A stretch of DNA of 64,000 nt. It comes from an uncultured Nitrososphaeria archaeon. Its GTDB lineage: Archaea; Thermoproteota; Nitrososphaeria_A; Caldarchaeales; Wolframiiraptoraceae. The notes below the pieces were generated by a model that saw nothing but the letters and a program-made list of their open reading frames with translations, ran no database searches and had not been told where the DNA came from. The position numbers were made by a program, and so were the translations under genes. Of this stretch, positions 30,072-64,000 are shown piece by piece (the first letter of the stretch is position 1; the number at the start of each line of letters is the position of its first letter). The stretch covers positions 511-64,510 of the forward strand of contig CAZZKR010000007.1 in NCBI GenBank assembly GCA_964655015.1, read 5' to 3'.

Positions 30072-30659
30072 TCAGCGATAGGATACGGCTTCGTTAAAAT
30101 CTTCGATGACTTTTTCGTCCTTTAACCTTTGAGCTGCCACTTCGCTGGCTTCCATCAGTATCTTTCTCACCTCTTCGTCATTGACACTTGGTTCAACTAT
30201 TGTATCGCTAACTGTTCCAATGCCATATATGGCATCCTCTACCGCCTCCTCTACTTCGCGTATGCTCCTCGAAGCATTCGGTAGTATTCCTGAGAGCTGA
30301 CCCTTAAGATCATCAAGCACGCCCTTGATCGGCGATATAACCTCGCGAAGCTCAGCTACATCATTAATCGTCTGGAGCCTATTAATTAACCCCTCAATGG
30401 AAAATTGGCTCTTCATAACAGTACTCATGGTCTTTCTCATATTTGATAACTCGTTTGCATAGACTATCGCCTTGTCTTTTTCGCTACTCATCAAAGACTT
30501 GACACAAGCCTCAAACAGTTCTTTACTCCTGGCCGAGTATTGATTTTGTCTTTGCTTAATTCTTTCACTTATCAGCGTAAGCTTCGTGGTAACTTCATTT
30601 AATTTATCTCTGAGGGGTTTTGGTGGGGGTTGTGACTTTTTACGTCTGAACAAATTCAT
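30072..30659 (-). CDS. cdvB: ESCRT-III / CdvB (Snf7) family protein
   Basis: LFE.CV..L......A..YANEL...RK......SQ..IE....RL.TI..V pattern; EEVRKIL.EA..VA C-terminal helix. Confidence 0.8.
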   Translation of the reverse strand: MNLFRRKKSQPPPKPLRDKLNEVTTKLTLISERIKQRQNQYSARSKELFEACVKSLMSSEKDKAIVYANELSNMRKTMSTVMKSQFSIEGLINRLQTINDVAELREVISPIKGVLDDLKGQLSGILPNASRSIREVEEAVEDAIYGIGTVSDTIVEPSVNDEEVRKILMEASEVAAQRLKDEKVIEDFNEAVSYR

Positions 30660-30761
30660 CAAGTTCACAAGTGTCCACACCTTAATGTTAGATTTAACGG
30701 TTTATGTGCAACGTCGCCACACATCTTATGCAGTAATATACGCAAAGAATTCATAGATACT

Positions 30762-49489: not shown

Positions 49490-50980
49490 TTAGAGACTCA
49501 TCTGGAGCTGCAGTGTATGAATCGGTTTTTCATAAACCCTCCTGATACAACCTGGATCCGGCATCAAGTAGTCTCCGAAATATCCATAGGCCCTAGCCCT
49601 GCAACCTCCGCAAATGAACTTATACGTACACGTTCCACACCCGCCCTTCAGTTTTTTCCTATCTCTAAGCTCGTTAAGGACGCTTGAATTGAGCCATATT
49701 TCTTCGAATCTTTCATGCCTCAGGTTGCCAAGTTTTATGGGCATGAATACGCATGGTTGAACGTCACCTTCAGGGCTTATCGCCGCATAAACTCTGCCCG
49801 CGCCGCAACCACCAATGAATTCGGCGACTTCCGGCGTTATGCCCGGAATGTTTGCATAATGAGTCGTAGGAACTGCGAGCTCAACACACGGAGCTGTTGG
49901 ATTGATCGTACAAATTTCCTCCACGATTTTCTCCTTCATCTCGAGTCCGACCCTAGCAAACTGGGGCGCCGTTGTGAAAATTTTCAATTTTTTATTTTGG
50001 AGCATATTGAAAACCAGCCTTTTATACAAGTACTTCAGGATTTCCTCCCTTTCCTGCGGTGTTGGATCGTCTTCTAGGATTTTTGTGGCCCTGCCGGTCG
50101 GTATAAAATTGAAGCATATGAAATAATCTGCCCCGAGCTCTTCGACGAAGTCAACCATTTTTTGTATCTCTGATATGTTATGTTTGGTTACAGTTGTGGC
50201 AACACCTACTGTAACACCTTCTTCCACCAAATATTTGATTGCAGAAACCGCTCTATCCCAGCTACCGGGAATTCCCCTAAACTCGTCATGCGTCCTTGAG
50301 TTTATACCATCTAGGCTTATTTCTGCGTAATGAACGGTTTTGGCAAGTCTCTTGGCAACATCCCTTGTTATGAGTGTGCCATTTGAGGCAATCGTTACAT
50401 ACATGCCGTTATCTCTCGCACTCCCTGCGACTTCAAAGAAATCCTGCCTGACGAGCGGCTCTCCTCCTGAAAATGCAATAGAAGTAACGTCCGCATCCGA
50501 GAGTTCCTTAACAACACGAAGCGCCTCGTTTGTTGTAAGCTCTGCTGGTAAACTTGAACTGGCGTTTTGATAACAATGTTTGCATCTGAGGTTGCATCTA
50601 TTTGTAAAGTTCCAGACAACGAAGAGTGGCGCACCTGTGACGAAAGGTTTCGTTACGCCAAACCAAGCCAGACCCTTTATCGTCGAAGTCAGTCCCTTCC
50701 TCCAATATGATACGCTCAAAGCCTTGACCAACGCGTCTTGGTTAGCATTCAGTGCCTTCAAAGTGATAAAGGTAAAGAACTTGAGTGCAGAAACGATCGA
50801 TGCGCATGTAATGCACTTCTTTTGCTTAATACCAAGACATTCATCAAAAAATATGTCTATGGGTCTTTTACCGCATTTGCTGCATTTCTCCAGACTTTTC
50901 TTCAGTAGTGCCCTTGGCTGCGAACCCGAAAGAACAATACGCATGGCGTTGAAGCCAAGCGAAATCGGTATGCTACTCAT
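49490..50980 (-). CDS. Radical SAM/SPASM-domain protein with a Cys-containing N-terminal extension
   Basis: CNLRCKHC SAM motif; SPASM CGAG...PC...CGTC...CGGCRARA...DP.C; extra N-terminal CSKC and CITC pairs. Confidence 0.9.
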   Translation of the reverse strand: MSSIPISLGFNAMRIVLSGSQPRALLKKSLEKCSKCGKRPIDIFFDECLGIKQKKCITCASIVSALKFFTFITLKALNANQDALVKALSVSYWRKGLTSTIKGLAWFGVTKPFVTGAPLFVVWNFTNRCNLRCKHCYQNASSSLPAELTTNEALRVVKELSDADVTSIAFSGGEPLVRQDFFEVAGSARDNGMYVTIASNGTLITRDVAKRLAKTVHYAEISLDGINSRTHDEFRGIPGSWDRAVSAIKYLVEEGVTVGVATTVTKHNISEIQKMVDFVEELGADYFICFNFIPTGRATKILEDDPTPQEREEILKYLYKRLVFNMLQNKKLKIFTTAPQFARVGLEMKEKIVEEICTINPTAPCVELAVPTTHYANIPGITPEVAEFIGGCGAGRVYAAISPEGDVQPCVFMPIKLGNLRHERFEEIWLNSSVLNELRDRKKLKGGCGTCTYKFICGGCRARAYGYFGDYLMPDPGCIRRVYEKPIHTLQLQMSL

Positions 50981-51067: not shown

Positions 51068-51490
51068 TCAAATGACTATTATGTCTTCCCTAAGAAATTC
51101 TTCATTTTTCTTATCAAAAATCCATGCGGTAACCTCTTCAGGCCTCTTATCGCGTATGGAAACTATAAGGTAGCTCATAGAGGACCAAGCGACTTCTGCA
51201 TCATAGACAGACGGTCTTGCAGGATAATCGGGATGAGAGTGGTATATGCCGACAAGCATCAACCCGTGTCTTTCAGCATCCTTTTCCACGTTGTATATGT
51301 CTAACGCATCAACCATGTATCTCCTCTTTCTATCTCCCACGTAAACGTTTTTACATTTGACAACCTTAACGACAACTTTCCTTTCGTCTTCCCTTTTTCC
51401 TACTAGAAGTCCACAACATTCTTCAGGATAAGTTTCTAAAGCATGTTTGATAACTTCGTCCAGATTGATTTTGCTTATTATGAGTGTCAA
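51068..51490 (-). CDS. JAMM/MPN+ (M67) metalloprotease, Mec/JAMM1-like
   Basis: YPEECCGLL.G...GIYHSHPD..A.PS..D JAMM motif. Confidence 0.92.
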   Translation of the reverse strand: MTLIISKINLDEVIKHALETYPEECCGLLVGKREDERKVVVKVVKCKNVYVGDRKRRYMVDALDIYNVEKDAERHGLMLVGIYHSHPDYPARPSVYDAEVAWSSMSYLIVSIRDKRPEEVTAWIFDKKNEEFLREDIIVI

Positions 51491-51563: not shown

Positions 51564-52529
51564 TCATTTCCAGAAACATTCCTCAACGTACCTCTCGCCT
51601 CCATCCGGAAAGATGGTCACCAGCAAACCTTCCTCCAACTCTCCAGCTACTTTTAAGGTAGCGGCGAGTGCGGCACCTGACGATACACCAACGAGTATTC
51701 CCTCAATCCTTGCAAGCTCTTTAACCATCTCATAAGCCTCGCTTGTGGATACGCGTATGCGTATATCGCTAAAGTTCTCGTCGTATATCTTCGGCCTAAT
51801 GCTTGTATCCATGTGTTTTAATCCCTCGATTTTATGAAAGTGTGAATCTGGTTGAACCTCCACGAGCTTTATGTTTTGATTGAATTCCTTTAACTTCCTA
51901 CCGGCTCCCATGAGCGTTCCAGAGGTCCCTACGCCGGCGATAAAATGTGTCAATCTCCCCTTAGTTTGTTTGATTATTTCAGGACCTGTCGTCGTGTAAT
52001 GGGCCAGCCAGTTTGATTCGTTGTCGTACTGGTTCGCGTAAAAGTATGCCCTAGGATCTTGCTCATATAGTTCACGGGCTTTTTTAATTGCCCCGTCTAG
52101 TCCGTCCACAGGGTTTGTACACACGACCTCGGCTCCATAGGCTTTCATAATAGCAATCTTCTTAGCACTGATATTCGCCGGGACCAACAGCTTGCATCTG
52201 TAACCTAGGATCGTAGCAATCATCGAATAAGAAATTCCCATGTTACCGGAAGTGGCATCAAGGATTGTTTTGTCGGGTGTTAGAGCCCCATTCTTTATGG
52301 CACTTAGGATTATGCTCAGGGCAGCCCTATCCTTGACAGAGCCCCCTGGGTTAAAAAACTCAAGTTTAGCGTAAATCTTAACACCGTTCTTTATACCATG
52401 TTTTGCGGGTAGTTTTTCAAGTCTACAAAGAGGTGTATTACCGATGAGTTTTAGAAGTTTATCGTAAACTCTAAGATGTTGCGCCTCATAACCGGCTTGG
52501 ACCCATGAATTGTGTCGATTAATCGACAC
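51564..52529 (-). CDS. cysM: Cysteine synthase family PLP enzyme (CysM-like)
   Basis: IGNTPL...AKLE..NPGGSVKDRAA, ATSGN.G, NQY.N..N..AH..TTGPEI, GVGTSGT..G, GVSSGA, IFPDGGERY. Confidence 0.88.
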   Translation of the reverse strand: MSINRHNSWVQAGYEAQHLRVYDKLLKLIGNTPLCRLEKLPAKHGIKNGVKIYAKLEFFNPGGSVKDRAALSIILSAIKNGALTPDKTILDATSGNMGISYSMIATILGYRCKLLVPANISAKKIAIMKAYGAEVVCTNPVDGLDGAIKKARELYEQDPRAYFYANQYDNESNWLAHYTTTGPEIIKQTKGRLTHFIAGVGTSGTLMGAGRKLKEFNQNIKLVEVQPDSHFHKIEGLKHMDTSIRPKIYDENFSDIRIRVSTSEAYEMVKELARIEGILVGVSSGAALAATLKVAGELEEGLLVTIFPDGGERYVEECFWK

Positions 52530-55126: not shown

Positions 55127-55864
55127 TTACATAACGCCTGGCGGTATGTCCGTTCTGGTTTTTTGTTGCTTGAACTCTTCAATTCTCTTAAGAGAGCTAA
55201 TGTAGAGTTCAACCTTCTTTGCCTGCTCTTCGAGCTTTGTATAGTCTAAATGCTCGATACCTAAAGCGGCAGAGAGCCTTTTCAACACTTCTATCGAAGC
55301 CTTAGGTTGTGCTATATCGGGTCTCTCTATTTCCCCAAGAAAACATACGCCTTCGATGTTACGTTGTGCTGCTAAGCCCAGCAATAGACCATTAAAACCT
55401 GTTATATACCCCTCTCCCCTCATTTTCTGGGCTCCATAGGATTCTATCTCCTCGTTAAGTCTAGCATCTGTTACTGCATAAAAAACTCTTGGTTCTGATA
55501 TTGAGACACCAGTATGTGCCGCTCCCAACGTGTATATTCTTCTAACACCTAAGCTGACTGCCAAATCTAACAAATCTTTACACAATTCATACAACATGTG
55601 TGGTTCTTGAGGTTGATAAAATCCGGTAAAGACAGCAAAATCTTTTCCGCCCCAATACAATCTGAAAGAAAATCTTTCAAATTCTATGAGAGAGTTTTTA
55701 TGAATTACATATGGTGGCATATAGTCCAATATCTCTGCTATTGGTTCCATCTTCAACTCCTCTATGAGATACGCTGCCGCAATGCCGCCTACGTTGCCCA
55801 TTCCAGGAAGTGCTGCGACCAGCGATTTTACGGTGACGCCCCTCTTCAATATGTTTACTTCCAA
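55127..55864 (-). CDS. PAC2-family proteasome assembly chaperone
   Basis: LPG.GNVG...A.YL......TLG......GEG.I.G.NGLL...A......G.C..GE......P.A...L. Confidence 0.85.
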   Translation of the reverse strand: MEVNILKRGVTVKSLVAALPGMGNVGGIAAAYLIEELKMEPIAEILDYMPPYVIHKNSLIEFERFSFRLYWGGKDFAVFTGFYQPQEPHMLYELCKDLLDLAVSLGVRRIYTLGAAHTGVSISEPRVFYAVTDARLNEEIESYGAQKMRGEGYITGFNGLLLGLAAQRNIEGVCFLGEIERPDIAQPKASIEVLKRLSAALGIEHLDYTKLEEQAKKVELYISSLKRIEEFKQQKTRTDIPPGVM

Positions 55865-60239: not shown

Positions 60240-60494
60240 CTATTTAACGCCGCCTCGCCTGCCTCTTTTGGTTGGTGCTTTACTATCGTCCTCCACGTAC
60301 TCCTTTTCGGCTGGATACGTCCCTGTCTTTTTGGATAATTCCTCAAGCTCCTTTACTGCATCTAGATCATCCACTTCAATCACTACTGGTCCGACGTAAC
60401 CACATGAGGCACATCGATATAACATTCCCGCATATCCACCCAAATATAAGTTAATTTTATCGCTTTTACACATAGGACATATTAGAGTTTTCAC
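60240..60494 (-). CDS. Small Zn-ribbon protein
   Basis: CPMCKS...GG..G..YRC..CGY.GP.V.E followed by a charged tail. Confidence 0.7.
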   Translation of the reverse strand: MKTLICPMCKSDKINLYLGGYAGMLYRCASCGYVGPVVIEVDDLDAVKELEELSKKTGTYPAEKEYVEDDSKAPTKRGRRGGVK

Positions 60495-60500
60495 ACATCA

Positions 60501-60944
60501 TCAGAACTCCTCTTTAATCGTAAGAAACGATGCACATGTCATGCTCTTGCCAACCCCCTCAATAGTCCTAAGCTTGTCTATGACGAGTTCACCTATTGAC
60601 TGTATTGACTCCCCTCTTACCTTCAAAAGTATGTCCCACTCGCCAGATATTAGATGAACTTCATGAACGTCGGGTAACGTTGCTATGTATTCACCAAGCT
60701 TTTTCTGGGAAATGTTCGCTCCCGGAAGAAAGGATATTAATACGAATGCCGTCGTTGGCTTACCGAGCTTCGAGTAATCTGGTATTACAGTAAATTTTTT
60801 AATTATCCCCTTGCTCCTTAGTTTCTTTATCCTTTCTTGAACAGTCGTCCTTGGCATGTTAAGCTTTATTGCAAGCTCCGAAATACTTTGACTAGCATCC
60901 TCAATAAGTTCATTTAATATTTTCCAGTCTTTTTCGTCCATCAT
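60501..60944 (-). CDS. Lrp/AsnC family transcriptional regulator
   Basis: MDEKD.KIL.EL..DA.....ELA..L.....TV.ERI.KL...GIIK.F; RAM domain H.ISGE.D; ATG at 60944. Confidence 0.94.
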   Translation of the reverse strand: MMDEKDWKILNELIEDASQSISELAIKLNMPRTTVQERIKKLRSKGIIKKFTVIPDYSKLGKPTTAFVLISFLPGANISQKKLGEYIATLPDVHEVHLISGEWDILLKVRGESIQSIGELVIDKLRTIEGVGKSMTCASFLTIKEEF

Positions 60945-61035
60945 CTCACTATAAAATAATATTAATGGTTGCTTTTGGTTCTTACTCCTATAATGTTTAG
61001 TGTTATTCATTAAAAGACGAATTAAGGTAAAGGTG

Positions 61036-61851
61036 TCAGCTGGTAGTGGAAGCTTGCGCCTCCTTCCAGATAAGTATTATTGCATATTCCCTAGGTATGC
61101 CCAAAGACTGCATAATGTTTTCTATGTTTTTTTGCAAAGATTCATCAACTCTTGGACCAAACTTCGCTCCATGCTTTTCTTTCAACTCTTCATAAAGTTT
61201 GTCAGCAAGCTCAGTGTACGCCGTTAAGGAGTAAATTTTTTTCGGCAAGTCAGTAACCATCCTGGCCATTTCTTCTAACTCTCTAATCCTCTTTTTCTTC
61301 TCGGAAAGTTCTTGTCTGAGAACTGTGATTTTTGTCTCTAAGCTTGCTTTAAGCTCCTGAGATACGGGAACGTTCGAACTTTCTTTATATTTCAGCGTAT
61401 CCAATTCGACGATCGAGATACATAAATCTGTCTCGATATTTGAAAACTCTGCCTCCAGTTTACTCTTAGCTGCATTAATTTTTTCAAGCAAGGATGCCGA
61501 CTCATTAATTATTTGCTCCCTCATCATGTTCCACCTTGATAATATCTCCTTGATGGTTGTTATGCTAATGTCCTGCTCCAGAAGCATCTTTTGGAATATT
61601 TGCTCCCGTATCTTTATCTCTTGTAACTTTGCCATGAGCGCATCATATCCTTCGAAAGCTTCTTTTACAACAGATGCCTCGAGGCCCTTAGATGTTACAA
61701 TACTCTCGGGCGGTTTTGTTTGAATTTTTGCCTCAATTTCTGGAGCGCTCACCTCAGGCTCTACTTGAGAAACCTCTTCTATTGCATCCTTCGCCATTTT
61801 TTCTTCCTTAAACTTTATAACTATCTTTTTCGGCATTATGGCTCCTCCCAA
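61036..61851 (-). CDS. Coiled-coil protein, possibly CdvA-like
   Basis: Disordered acidic N-terminus then long heptad helices; segment KMLLEQDISITTIKEIL resembles the CdvA-type L...G.IS..TY.E pattern. Confidence 0.55.
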   Translation of the reverse strand: MGGAIMPKKIVIKFKEEKMAKDAIEEVSQVEPEVSAPEIEAKIQTKPPESIVTSKGLEASVVKEAFEGYDALMAKLQEIKIREQIFQKMLLEQDISITTIKEILSRWNMMREQIINESASLLEKINAAKSKLEAEFSNIETDLCISIVELDTLKYKESSNVPVSQELKASLETKITVLRQELSEKKKRIRELEEMARMVTDLPKKIYSLTAYTELADKLYEELKEKHGAKFGPRVDESLQKNIENIMQSLGIPREYAIILIWKEAQASTTS

Positions 61852-61884: not shown

Positions 61885-62520
61885 TCATCCCTTCTTACTC
61901 GGTAAAAGTTTTTTGGTTTTGCTAAAAAACTTTACTATGTGATCGATATCAAGTATTTTGGCAGTACTAGTCTTTACGCTCTCCTCATCGAGAACGTCGG
62001 CTTTCTTGGGGATCAAATCAAGCATTTGGAGACCGATTAGTGTGCTTTCAAGGACCTTACGCCGCTGCAGACCAAGCGTGAACCTTACTGGCACAACCCT
62101 TTCATTTTTATCTATTCTAAACACACCGATCTTTAGATCCGAGACTTTCCAGCTGACGCTAAATTGTAGGGGGTCTATAACTAACGCAATGGCCTTAGGA
62201 AACATGGCTTGGTACGCTTTTTGCGTCTCGACATCGATGGGCGACATAAAGACGTCTAAACCCGGATGTGAATGATACCAACCAACTATGTATAGGTCCG
62301 GAAGGTTTTCCATTAGGACTTCAGCAACTAAGGCCATAACGCTCTCTTCGAGCTTAACGTATGCGGGCGTGCTTTGTTGGATACCAGTAACAGCATCCCA
62401 GACCTCAACAACGTCCGATACTACTTTTCCTACCATCAACCCTGCAACTTCTTGATTAATGTTACTAATAGAGTGATAAAGTATCTTACCAAGAGCCAGA
62501 GGATAAATGCGTGCCCTCAT
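61885..62520 (-). CDS. Rpn11-like JAMM deubiquitinase / pro-ubiquitin processing protease
   Basis: EV.GL.VG...VGWYHSHPGL.VFMS.IDV.TQ..YQ......A.ALV.DP, close to the eukaryotic Rpn11 pattern. Confidence 0.9.
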   Translation of the reverse strand: MRARIYPLALGKILYHSISNINQEVAGLMVGKVVSDVVEVWDAVTGIQQSTPAYVKLEESVMALVAEVLMENLPDLYIVGWYHSHPGLDVFMSPIDVETQKAYQAMFPKAIALVIDPLQFSVSWKVSDLKIGVFRIDKNERVVPVRFTLGLQRRKVLESTLIGLQMLDLIPKKADVLDEESVKTSTAKILDIDHIVKFFSKTKKLLPSKKG

Positions 62521-62715
62521 GGAACCTGCATATTAGTGTTTAGCCATATTAATTAATGTTTGAAAATAACTGATAAACTCGTTAGATAACATATGACGTA
62601 ATGCGCCCAACATATACGGGAATTTCTGGCGTTGTTTATGCGTAACCCCTAACCTTTTTAAAAAGTTAATACTTAAATACATTACAAATAGAGTGCCAGT
62701 GGGGGTTAAAGACTT

Positions 62716-62997
62716 ATGAAAATTAAGGTTATACCTGCGGTTGGTGGTGGTAGCCCTCTAGAATTAGAGGTATCGCCGAATGCAACAATAGGGGCAATTA
62801 AGGCTAAGGTTTGCGCGATTAAGAAACTTCCGCCAGATACTACATACCTAACCTACAAGGGTAGAGCCCTTAAAGAAACGGAAACGCTTACTGAATTAGG
62901 TATATCGGAGGGCGACAAATTGGTCATCATAACGAGAACAGTGGGGGGTGACGCCACTGGAAACTTATTCAGAATTACCCGAACCTCTATGGAATAA
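62716..62997 (+). CDS. Eukaryote-like pro-ubiquitin (78-aa mature domain ending TRTVGG plus 15-aa propeptide)
   Basis: Beta-grasp Ub pattern LEV.P..TI..IK.KV......P.....L.YKGR.LK....L.E.GI.EGD.L....R..GG; closely resembles Caldiarchaeum subterraneum ubiquitin as I recall it. Confidence 0.92.
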   Translation: MKIKVIPAVGGGSPLELEVSPNATIGAIKAKVCAIKKLPPDTTYLTYKGRALKETETLTELGISEGDKLVIITRTVGGDATGNLFRITRTSME

Positions 62998-63463
62998 GAG
63001 GTTAGCCGTAGAATATAGGTTGATGCAGGAGCGTGACCCTCCGTTATTTGATATAATTGACGGGGACTTGACACACTATATGGGCATAATAGTGGGCTCC
63101 GGGTATTATGAGGGTGGCTACTTTAAGGTAGAGATAAAAATACCAAGAGCGTATCCGTACGTGCCGCCAGATGTTATTTGGCATACAAGGATATGGCATC
63201 CTAATTTCACAGATGAGGTTCCTGCCAAAATATGCGAATCCATTTTTAAAGATGATTGGAGACCTGGTTTGTATCTCGTGAATGTCATCGAGGCTCTCCA
63301 GAATCTACTAGCCAACCCGAACCCGGATGACCCACTTAACTCGATAGCAGCTTATGAAATGAAGTATAAGCCCGACGTTTTTTTCAATAGGGTTAAGTAC
63401 TACATACAGCTCTATGCAACTCCAGAAAAGGTTTTTGATAAAAAGCTAAAGTGGCGAATGTAG
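62948..63463 (+). CDS. E2 ubiquitin-conjugating enzyme
   Basis: KRL..EY..M, Y.GG.F...I..P..YP..PP.V.W.T.IWHPN, catalytic Cys in KICESI, W.P, LL..PN.DDPLN. Confidence 0.95.
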   Translation: MTPLETYSELPEPLWNKRLAVEYRLMQERDPPLFDIIDGDLTHYMGIIVGSGYYEGGYFKVEIKIPRAYPYVPPDVIWHTRIWHPNFTDEVPAKICESIFKDDWRPGLYLVNVIEALQNLLANPNPDDPLNSIAAYEMKYKPDVFFNRVKYYIQLYATPEKVFDKKLKWRM

Positions 63464-63557
63464 TTAAAATTTTGTGCTTTCAATGGTTTTAACATGTCTC
63501 TTTTAAGCTTCAGCACTAAACGTTATTATACTGTTTAAATAAACCTTCAAGCTGCAA

Positions 63558-64000
63558 ATGGAGCCATATCTGCTGGAAAGATATGATAGGCAGATAAGAA
63601 TCAGTGGTTGGGACCAGTGGAAGGTCTCAAACTCAACAGTTTTAATAGCGGGCGTGGGTGCAACAGGTTGCGAGTTAGCAAAGAACCTTTGTCTTGCGGG
63701 AATTGGTAGGCTGATCTTGGTTGACAACGACGTGGTAGAACTCTCAAATCTTAACCGTCAAATGTTGTTTGATGATTCTGATATAGGCTTACCAAAAGCC
63801 ATAGTTGCCAGAGAAAAGCTTCAGAAGATGAACCCTTATGTTAAGATTGATGCCTATTATGAGGACTTAAGAAAGTTTGATGAATTTATACTAAAGGATG
63901 TGGACGTGTTTTGCTCTTGCCTAGATAACTGGGCAACGAGAAGATGGCTCAACTCGCTTGCCGTTGAACTTAAGAAGCCACTCGTTGACACAGCGATCGA
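63558..64000 (+). CDS. E1 ubiquitin-activating enzyme (partial, runs off the window)
   Basis: Hand-translated MEPYLLERYDRQIRISGWDQWKVSNSTVLIAGVGATGCELAKNLCLAGIGRLILVDNDVVELSNLNRQMLF...CLDNWATRRWLN; open to 64000. Confidence 0.92.
   Translation, partial: MEPYLLERYDRQIRISGWDQWKVSNSTVLIAGVGATGCELAKNLCLAGIGRLILVDNDVVELSNLNRQMLFDDSDIGLPKAIVAREKLQKMNPYVKIDAYYEDLRKFDEFILKDVDVFCSCLDNWATRRWLNSLAVELKKPLVDTAI

Follow-up and report, generated by a model that had tools for sequence, protein, structure and literature searches.

Does the gene cluster at the right-hand end of this stretch encode a ubiquitylation system of the eukaryotic type, and if so, is it of a kind that is already known? The stretch, called the window here, is 64,000 nt of contig CAZZKR010000007.1 from an uncultured Nitrososphaeria archaeon. 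The original prediction, made from its letters, had proposed such a system between position 61885 and the window end, with an Rpn11-like protease divergent from genes for ubiquitin (Ub), E2 and E1. We conclude that the locus very likely encodes a eukaryote-type ubiquitylation system that is chromosomal and was inherited vertically, with each gene having its orthologue in CSUB_C1473-C1477 of Caldiarchaeum subterraneum, a cluster described by Nunoura 2011 (PMC3082918), Hennell James 2017 (PMC5654768) and Fuchs 2018 (PMC6043591). For this copy, the basis is its gene content, motifs, orthology and synteny.

Nineteen public contigs were found by exact look-up with the E2 protein. Of these, L001, L003, L004 and L005 share 99.86-99.96% identity with the window over 4-11 kb, and L002 and L006 share 96.5%; adding 52947 to an L001 coordinate gives the window coordinate. 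Among the 334 open reading frames (ORFs) of at least 40 amino acids (aa) found by scanning the window, the HPN..Cys pattern of E2 enzymes occurred once, the JAMM motif twice and the RING pattern not at all; the co-occurrence at this locus is not due to chance.

The first gene of the rightward set (62716-62997, plus strand) encodes a 93-aa pro-ubiquitin that matches the Pfam families ubiquitin (PF00240, E = 8.5e-13) and Rad60-SLD, and no match to the ThiS/MoaD family was found in it at E up to 0.01. The original prediction of a beta-grasp protein with an internal RTVGG motif was borne out, and the motif ends at residue 78, so that mature Ub comprises residues 1-78. In searches of PDB sequences, the C. 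subterraneum Ub structures 2mqj, 6fj7 and 6fnn were matched with E-values from 8e-39 to 4e-38, and eukaryotic ubiquitin aligned to residues 12-78. Thr46 occupies the position of human Ile44, as it does in C. subterraneum, and none of the nine lysines (2, 4, 29, 31, 36, 37, 48, 53 and 68) aligns with human K48 or K63. Because the protein ends in R74-T-V-G-G78, trypsin would cut after Arg74 and leave TVGG (+314.16 Da), not diGly, on a modified lysine, and standard diGly enrichment would therefore fail.

A tail of 15 aa (DATGNLFRITRTSME) follows Gly78. The E2 gene begins with a GTG (62948) that shares nucleotides with the second Gly codon of the GG pair (GGG GGT GAC, read as G GTG AC), and the whole tail thus lies inside the E2 gene in a different frame. 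RTVGG was invariant in all 17 Caldarchaeales loci compared, while the tails had lengths of 0, 6, 7, 8 or 15 aa and showed no sequence relationship from one lineage to another. Only loci in which the Ub and E2 ORFs overlap had a tail; with a spacer between the two genes, the Ub ORF stops immediately after GG. Across the three closest genomes, the E2 N-terminus differs at 1 of 19 positions and the overlapping Ub tail at 2-4 of 15. In this small sample, the tail looks like a passenger of the overlap between the Ub and E2 genes that is tolerated through its removal by Rpn11, and this link to gene overlap would mean that Rpn11 'maturation' of Ub is needed in some lineages only.

The E2 gene (62948-63463, plus strand) encodes a UBC-fold protein of 171 aa (UQ_con, PF00179, E = 6.5e-28), and there is no alternative start codon between the GTG and the UBC core. 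The HPN motif and catalytic Cys expected from the original reading are at residues 84-86 and 96, and Cys96 is the sole cysteine of the protein. The best PDB matches are eukaryotic E2s, with UBE2K (1.9e-25) aligned through the active site. The loop-4 residues P70-Y71 are conserved, and the equivalent Pro-Tyr was shown by mutagenesis to be important in C. subterraneum.

The E1 gene starts with an ATG at 63558, and the window (63558-64000, plus strand) holds residues 1-147 of 396, a fragment that matches Pfam ThiF at 2.8e-46. The three E1 motifs that had been noticed are RYDRQ at residue 8, GVGATG (for GxGxxG) at 32 and SNLNRQ at 63; the two start codons at 63558 and 62948 and the point at which the window cuts E1 are additions of the present analysis. 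The original prediction had advised reading past 64000 for the catalytic Cys of E1 and a small RING gene, and both were found there: E1 is not truncated, its Cys is present and an E3 gene follows. The complete E1 (L001 10611-11801, 99.9% identical to the window) has a ThiF domain spanning residues 9-307 (1.7e-61), followed towards the C-terminus by a ubiquitin-fold domain (315-378, 2.9e-06). Cys182 in the sequence AECTL is invariant in an alignment of 32 Caldarchaeales orthologues, and in the PDB search it is aligned with PLCTLR, the motif around the catalytic Cys of yeast Uba1. Also invariant in these orthologues are C164/C167 and C307/C310, which form a MoeB-like zinc site. The best PDB matches of E1 are Uba1 (1.2e-40) and UBA3 (9e-33).

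Directly after E1 is srfp, a gene for a 76-aa small RING finger protein (L001 11779-12009, about 64726-64956 in window coordinates and thus outside the window; plus strand; zf-RING_2, PF13639, 4.2e-10). Its TTG start overlaps the end of E1 by 23 nt, which explains why gene callers missed it: it is absent from the public gene calls of all six contigs L001-L006, where a gap of 204 bp is shown instead. The upstream start is supported by an N-terminal segment, KIVVG..G.W, that is conserved across the order. The protein (CPICASEINEGVATTTCPHCGTIGHKVCFDSWLSIRNACPIC) has the spacing C-X2-C-X11-C-X2-C-X4-H-X2-C-X10-C-X2-C, and the identical Cys/His spacing was published for CSUB_C1477 of C. subterraneum (Nunoura, PMC3082918). 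It keeps the Ile of CPIC, the Trp of FDSW and the Lys after the last Cys, which we equate by motif with I30, W58 and R69, the residues mutated in PMC5654768.

The Rpn11-like gene (61885-62520, minus strand) encodes a JAMM/MPN+ metalloprotease of 211 aa (Pfam JAB, 7.9e-20) in which the catalytic residues Glu24 and H83-S-H85-x7-S93-x2-D96 are kept. Its best PDB match is 6fju, the Rpn11 of C. subterraneum (E = 2.1e-60, residues 1-186), followed by yeast and human Rpn11 at about 1e-19. Its predicted roles are the processing of pro-Ub and deubiquitination. The gene is read from the strand opposite to Ub, with exactly 195 bp separating the two (Ub start codon at 62716), as had been noted. This divergent intergenic region (62521-62715, strandless) presumably carries both promoters. 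A TATA-like A/T-rich block (TTTAAAAAGTTAATACTTAAATAC) precedes the Ub ATG by about 50 nt, and another (CATATTAATTAA) lies near the Rpn11 start on the other strand; both are conserved in the window, L002 and the related locus L007. GGGGG is located 10-14 nt ahead of the Ub ATG.

Two further observations concern the spacer and the protease family. The centre of the spacer (62560-62640, GCGTAATGCGCCCAACATATACGGGAATTTCTGGCGTTGTTT) is nearly identical in the window, L002 and L007, against 83% identity elsewhere, and may be bound by a regulator. A second, small JAMM protease of 140 aa (HSHPDYPARPSVYD; Prok-JAB, 1.1e-23) is encoded at 51068-51490 on the minus strand, adjoining the genes for a PALP enzyme (51564-52529) and a radical SAM/SPASM protein (49490-50980), and is probably a SAMP-type protease that coexists with the Rpn11-type one.

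The layout predicted from the letters, that of C. subterraneum with Rpn11 divergent from Ub-E2-E1-srfp (PMC5654768), was recovered. Both loci have the five genes in equal order and orientation with overlaps between genes, a pro-Ub tail after GG, an E1 with a C-terminal Ub-like domain and a 'second E3' nearby, and both organisms belong to the same taxonomic order. In the rightward set studied here, Ub and E2 overlap by 50 nt, E1 and srfp by 23 nt, and srfp and the following gene are joined through ATGA. The differences are that the host belongs to another genus, with an E1 about 46-53% identical to Caldarchaeum-type E1s, that the Ub tail has 15 aa instead of nine, that E2 loop 7 reads RPG instead of SPS, and that the present copy is known from genes alone. 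Judged by gene content and order, the locus is thus an orthologue of a published system within the same order and not a new kind.

By analogy with that system, a mechanism can be outlined for the present copy, in which we infer all activities, the operon structure, the promoters, the dimerisation of E1 and the roles of the membrane RING and helical proteins considered below. The two spacer promoters would drive transcription of Rpn11 and its downstream neighbour cc266 leftward and of Ub-E2-E1-srfp-cc103 rightward. The Rpn11-like JAMM protease would trim the 93-aa pro-Ub after Gly78. E1, with its single ThiF-type adenylation domain and probably as a homodimer, would adenylate Gly78 and form a thioester on Cys182; its C-terminal ubiquitin-fold domain would recruit E2, and Ub would pass to Cys96. 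The RING protein srfp, and probably the membrane-anchored one, would activate E2~Ub for transfer to substrate lysines, and Rpn11 would also strip Ub from conjugates. Pro-Ub cleavage, the E1/E2/E3-dependent cascade and deconjugation were demonstrated for the C. subterraneum orthologues only (PMC5654768, PMC6043591).

The nearest genome is that of Ca. Terraquivivens tengchongensis, with an E1 that is 92% identical in aa and locus DNA that is 83% identical, and the E1 of Ca. Terraquivivens tikiterensis is 88% identical. Metagenome-assembled genomes (MAGs) labelled Caldarchaeales, Aigarchaeota or 'Nitrososphaerota' contain hundreds of E1 homologues that are 46-60% identical. The host, a hot-spring archaeon, is a Terraquivivens-like representative of the Caldarchaeales (Aigarchaeota), and C. 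subterraneum belongs to the same order; one source sample is, by its sample code, a Great Boiling Spring enrichment. The system had been called rare in prokaryotes, which holds across prokaryotes and fails within this lineage, where it is the rule: Hua et al. found homologues of Ub, E1, E2, E3 and deubiquitinase in six of six Aigarchaeota bins (PMC6053391), and we found the Ub system in about 15 GTDB species representatives of the host lineage.

Three points weigh against a eukaryote-type cascade. In single-stretch comparisons with PDB sequences, E1 scores 117 bits against UBA3, 103 against E. coli ThiF and 91.5 against the active adenylation domain of Uba1. Residues 148-396 of E1 and both RING genes lie outside the window and were read from near-identical metagenome contigs. 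Lastly, loop 7 of E2 is W-R-P-G, where most relatives have W-S-P-S; the loop-7 PS-to-AA mutant of the C. subterraneum E2 alone had no visible effect in assays (PMC5654768).

The first point bears on whether the locus could instead be a prokaryote-type system like SAMP or Urm1, in which a MoeB/ThiF-type E1 activates, and a JAMM protease trims, a beta-grasp sulfur carrier or E2-independent protein modifier. With ThiF, UBA3 and Uba1 scoring so closely, and MoeB at 93 bits also near the eukaryotic E1 domains, the adenylation core alone gives no sharp separation from sulfur-carrier E1s. E1 also keeps the MoeB-like pair of CxxC zinc motifs, and JAMM-Ubl-E1 clusters are common in archaea (PMC6043591). 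On sequence criteria, however, this E1 is set apart from sulfur-carrier E1s by its Cys motif, its ubiquitin-fold domain and its partner genes: its active-site Cys stands in the eukaryotic CTL context, it has no rhodanese domain, and the locus adds a canonical UBC E2 (6.5e-28) and two RING proteins. The modifier matches ubiquitin and Rad60-SLD, and a separate small Prok-JAB protease is present elsewhere in the window (51068-51490); in C. subterraneum the two systems exist without cross-reaction (PMC6043591). We therefore regard a SAMP/Urm1-like system as very improbable.

The loop-7 difference would fit a decaying, non-functional remnant of the cluster, as would the end of the window within E1, the omission of the small RING gene from the public calls for six contigs, and the unusually long Ub tail. 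Against decay, four independent assemblies at 99.9% identity and two more at 96.5% have every ORF intact, the four carrying the complete E1 and both RING genes. Every catalytic residue is kept, and the srfp ORF retains its full RING motif together with the conserved N-terminal segment. The proteins of the window species, L002 and L007 are 82-96% identical, compared with 83% for the DNA against L007, which indicates purifying selection. It is hard to reconcile these data with a remnant, and we give that explanation little credence.

Least probable of all is that the locus is an anti-virus system like Bil/Bub or CBASS Cap2/Cap3, carried by a defence island or a mobile element. Ubl, E2, E1 and JAMM do make up the component list of Bil operons (bioRxiv 10.1101/2023.09.26.559546), E1 matches the CBASS 'E1-E2' models of PADLOC at up to 66 bits, and JAMM weakly matches its JAB models. 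Apart from coiled-coil hits, however, the PADLOC hits reflect the generic adenylation domain only, far below Pfam ThiF (208 bits), and Ub, E2 and the RING proteins had no PADLOC match (PADLOC 2.0.0, 2023, which may lack Bil/Bub models). Those systems resemble the present one in that Ubl, E1, E2 and JAMM are co-encoded and that JAMM reverses isopeptide conjugation; they differ in being antiviral, in residing on defence islands, in lacking a RING E3, and in having E1 and E2 that are often fused and divergent from UBC/Uba. RING E3s are not part of either system. Here, position and gene order are kept across an archaeal order, and relatives in IMG/VR are all at most 37% identical and are giant-virus E1s, which argues against a mobile or viral origin. 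The core chromosomal setting without mobility genes that had been described was also found: the window carries a ribosomal protein operon and genes for primase, Cdc6/Orc1, PolD, the pst transporter and PCNA, as well as deoxyhypusine synthase, carAB, 5S rRNA, eIF-1A, RIO1 and TopoVI-B. Integrase, transposase and defence genes were not found anywhere in its 64 kb. Membership in CBASS type II in particular was considered and rejected: E1 and E2 are separate genes, no cyclase or effector is nearby, and the PADLOC E1-E2 models scored at most 66 bits.

Returning to a eukaryote-type ubiquitylation system as the preferred explanation, we compared the locus with the Ub and NEDD8 cascades of eukaryotes (Uba1/UBA3, UBE2K/UBE2D, RNF13/RNF38/Ark2C and Rpn11). 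Folds and catalytic motifs are shared, and the best non-archaeal PDB match of every component is eukaryotic. The shared features include the E1 Cys in CTL with a ubiquitin-fold domain, the HPN and catalytic Cys of E2, and a basic residue after the last Cys of the RING, at the linchpin position. In contrast to eukaryotes, the genes here are arranged as a putative operon, and E1 is a 396-aa protein with a single adenylation domain and MoeB-like Zn CxxC pairs. Rpn11 is free-standing, without Rpn8, a proteasome lid or Ins-2 (PMC6043591), Ub carries Thr in place of Ile44 and lacks Lys at the equivalents of 48 and 63, and the RINGs are C4HC3-spaced. Asgard Ub clusters (L022-L033) likewise combine eukaryote-like Ub, E2, E1 and sometimes RING genes; their E1s, however, are 31-35% identical to the present one, the gene order is different and several E2/UEV genes are often present. 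Asgard clusters have been linked to ESCRT genes in the literature. Outside Asgard archaea, no prokaryotic system comes closer to eukaryotic ubiquitylation than this type. To this the present copy adds little, as the cascade has been reconstituted, the Rpn11-Ub structure solved and the Aigarchaeota-wide presence published.

Comparison of the flanks showed that the conserved block is larger than the five published genes. On the Rpn11 side, cc266 (61036-61836, minus strand) follows the Rpn11-like gene after 48 bp in the same orientation, probably as part of one transcript. Its 266-aa product has no Pfam family above threshold and is predicted to be a helical bundle: in the AlphaFold model, residues 55-265 form four long helices with a predicted local distance difference test (pLDDT) score of about 95, and the N-terminal 50 aa are disordered. 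Foldseek returned only generic helical bundles or long-helix proteins for it (AhlC, HlyD, SMC arms) with template-modelling scores of at most 0.4. Orthologues with conserved MPKKIV and IPREYAxxLWK motifs adjoin the JAMM gene in L007, L018, L020 and L088. A weak match to S. islandicus CdvA, at rank 44 with E = 0.41, was not taken as evidence.

Three more genes follow srfp on the other side, all outside the window. The ATG of cc103 (L001 12006-12317, plus strand), an ORF for a helical or coiled-coil protein, overlaps the srfp stop codon (ATGA). The convergent coiled-coil ORF cc307 (L001 12314-13150/13237, minus strand) lies between cc103 and the gene for a membrane RING protein; its true start is probably at MGFLGG, for a length of 279 aa that L002 and L007 share. 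All three helical proteins (cc266, cc103 and cc307) contain conserved motifs, and Pfam searches on them gave only sub-threshold coiled-coil noise. The last gene (L001 13287-13982, plus strand) encodes a putative RING E3 of 231 aa (zf-RING_2, 1.8e-09) with four predicted transmembrane helices followed by a C-terminal RING with C4HC3 spacing like that of srfp. In its model, the RING (pLDDT about 88) matches RNF13, RNF165 and RNF38, and the four-helix membrane part (pLDDT about 50) has no assignable fold. Orthologues of about 230 aa are located just upstream of an aminoacyl-tRNA synthetase gene in L007, L009, L010, L015, L016, L018 and L088. Homology searches, limited in their yield by a word-index prefilter, found only 9 relatives of the transmembrane RING protein and 13 of cc266, nearly all unnamed or 'hypothetical'; two carry the label 'RING finger' and one 'MerR regulator'.

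The order cc266-JAMM, Ub-E2-E1-srfp-cc103, cc307, transmembrane RING-aminoacyl-tRNA synthetase recurs in L007, L009, L010, L015, L016, L018 and L088/L089, although in L015 and L016 the cc266 homologue is elsewhere in the locus. The order is kept even in loci whose E1 is only 46-59% identical, among them Caldarchaeum sp. L088/L089 with an E1 that is 46% identical. In Caldarchaeales loci with enough flanking sequence, the nine-gene block is conserved, and the segment srfp-cc103-cc307-transmembrane RING was present or absent beside Ub-E2-E1 as a single piece. In L017 and L019-L021, which include named Calditenuaceae MAGs, Ub-E2-E1 are clustered and Ub has 78 aa ending exactly in GG, and srfp, cc103, cc307 and the transmembrane RING gene were adjacent in none of the four loci. 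Two of these loci were checked, and Ub-E2-E1 is followed there by unrelated genes (PALP, Y-family polymerase, exosome subunits); the JAMM gene is next door in L020 only. No equivalent of the cc103/cc307/transmembrane RING block was seen in the Asgard loci.

Fuchs et al. mentioned in passing 'a second E3 protein' adjacent to the C. subterraneum operon (PMC6043591), and no description of a membrane anchor of this second E3, or of the helical proteins, was found in the searchable literature. It is a possible, if rather doubtful, reading that the unit comprises nine genes and not five, with the transmembrane RING protein as a second, membrane-bound E3 and the helical proteins as adaptors, regulators or native substrates; the assignment of such roles to cc266, cc103 and cc307 is speculation. 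If true, the locus would represent an archaeal membrane-associated ubiquitylation module. The four-transmembrane RING E3 and the three helical proteins are the first candidates for native partners or substrates. Prompted by the link between Ub and ESCRT in Asgard archaea, an ESCRT-I-like reading of the helical proteins was tried and dropped, as they matched none of the Vps23, Vps28 and Vps37 families.

Order-wide, the locus neighbours an aminoacyl-tRNA synthetase gene and, in many loci, also PhoU and tRNA-intron endonuclease genes. An Lrp/AsnC gene is located two genes past Rpn11 at 60501-61010. Between it and a gene for a KaiC-like ATPase is a Zn-ribbon ORF with CPMC...CASC (60240-60425, minus strand), called at 61 aa and 84 aa long from the longest start, which is kept in L007. 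A PAC2-family gene (the Pfam proteasome assembly chaperone family) is found 6 kb from the Ub locus (55127-55864, minus strand), and farther away, a gene at 30072-30680 on the minus strand shows a faint Pfam match to Snf7/ESCRT-III.

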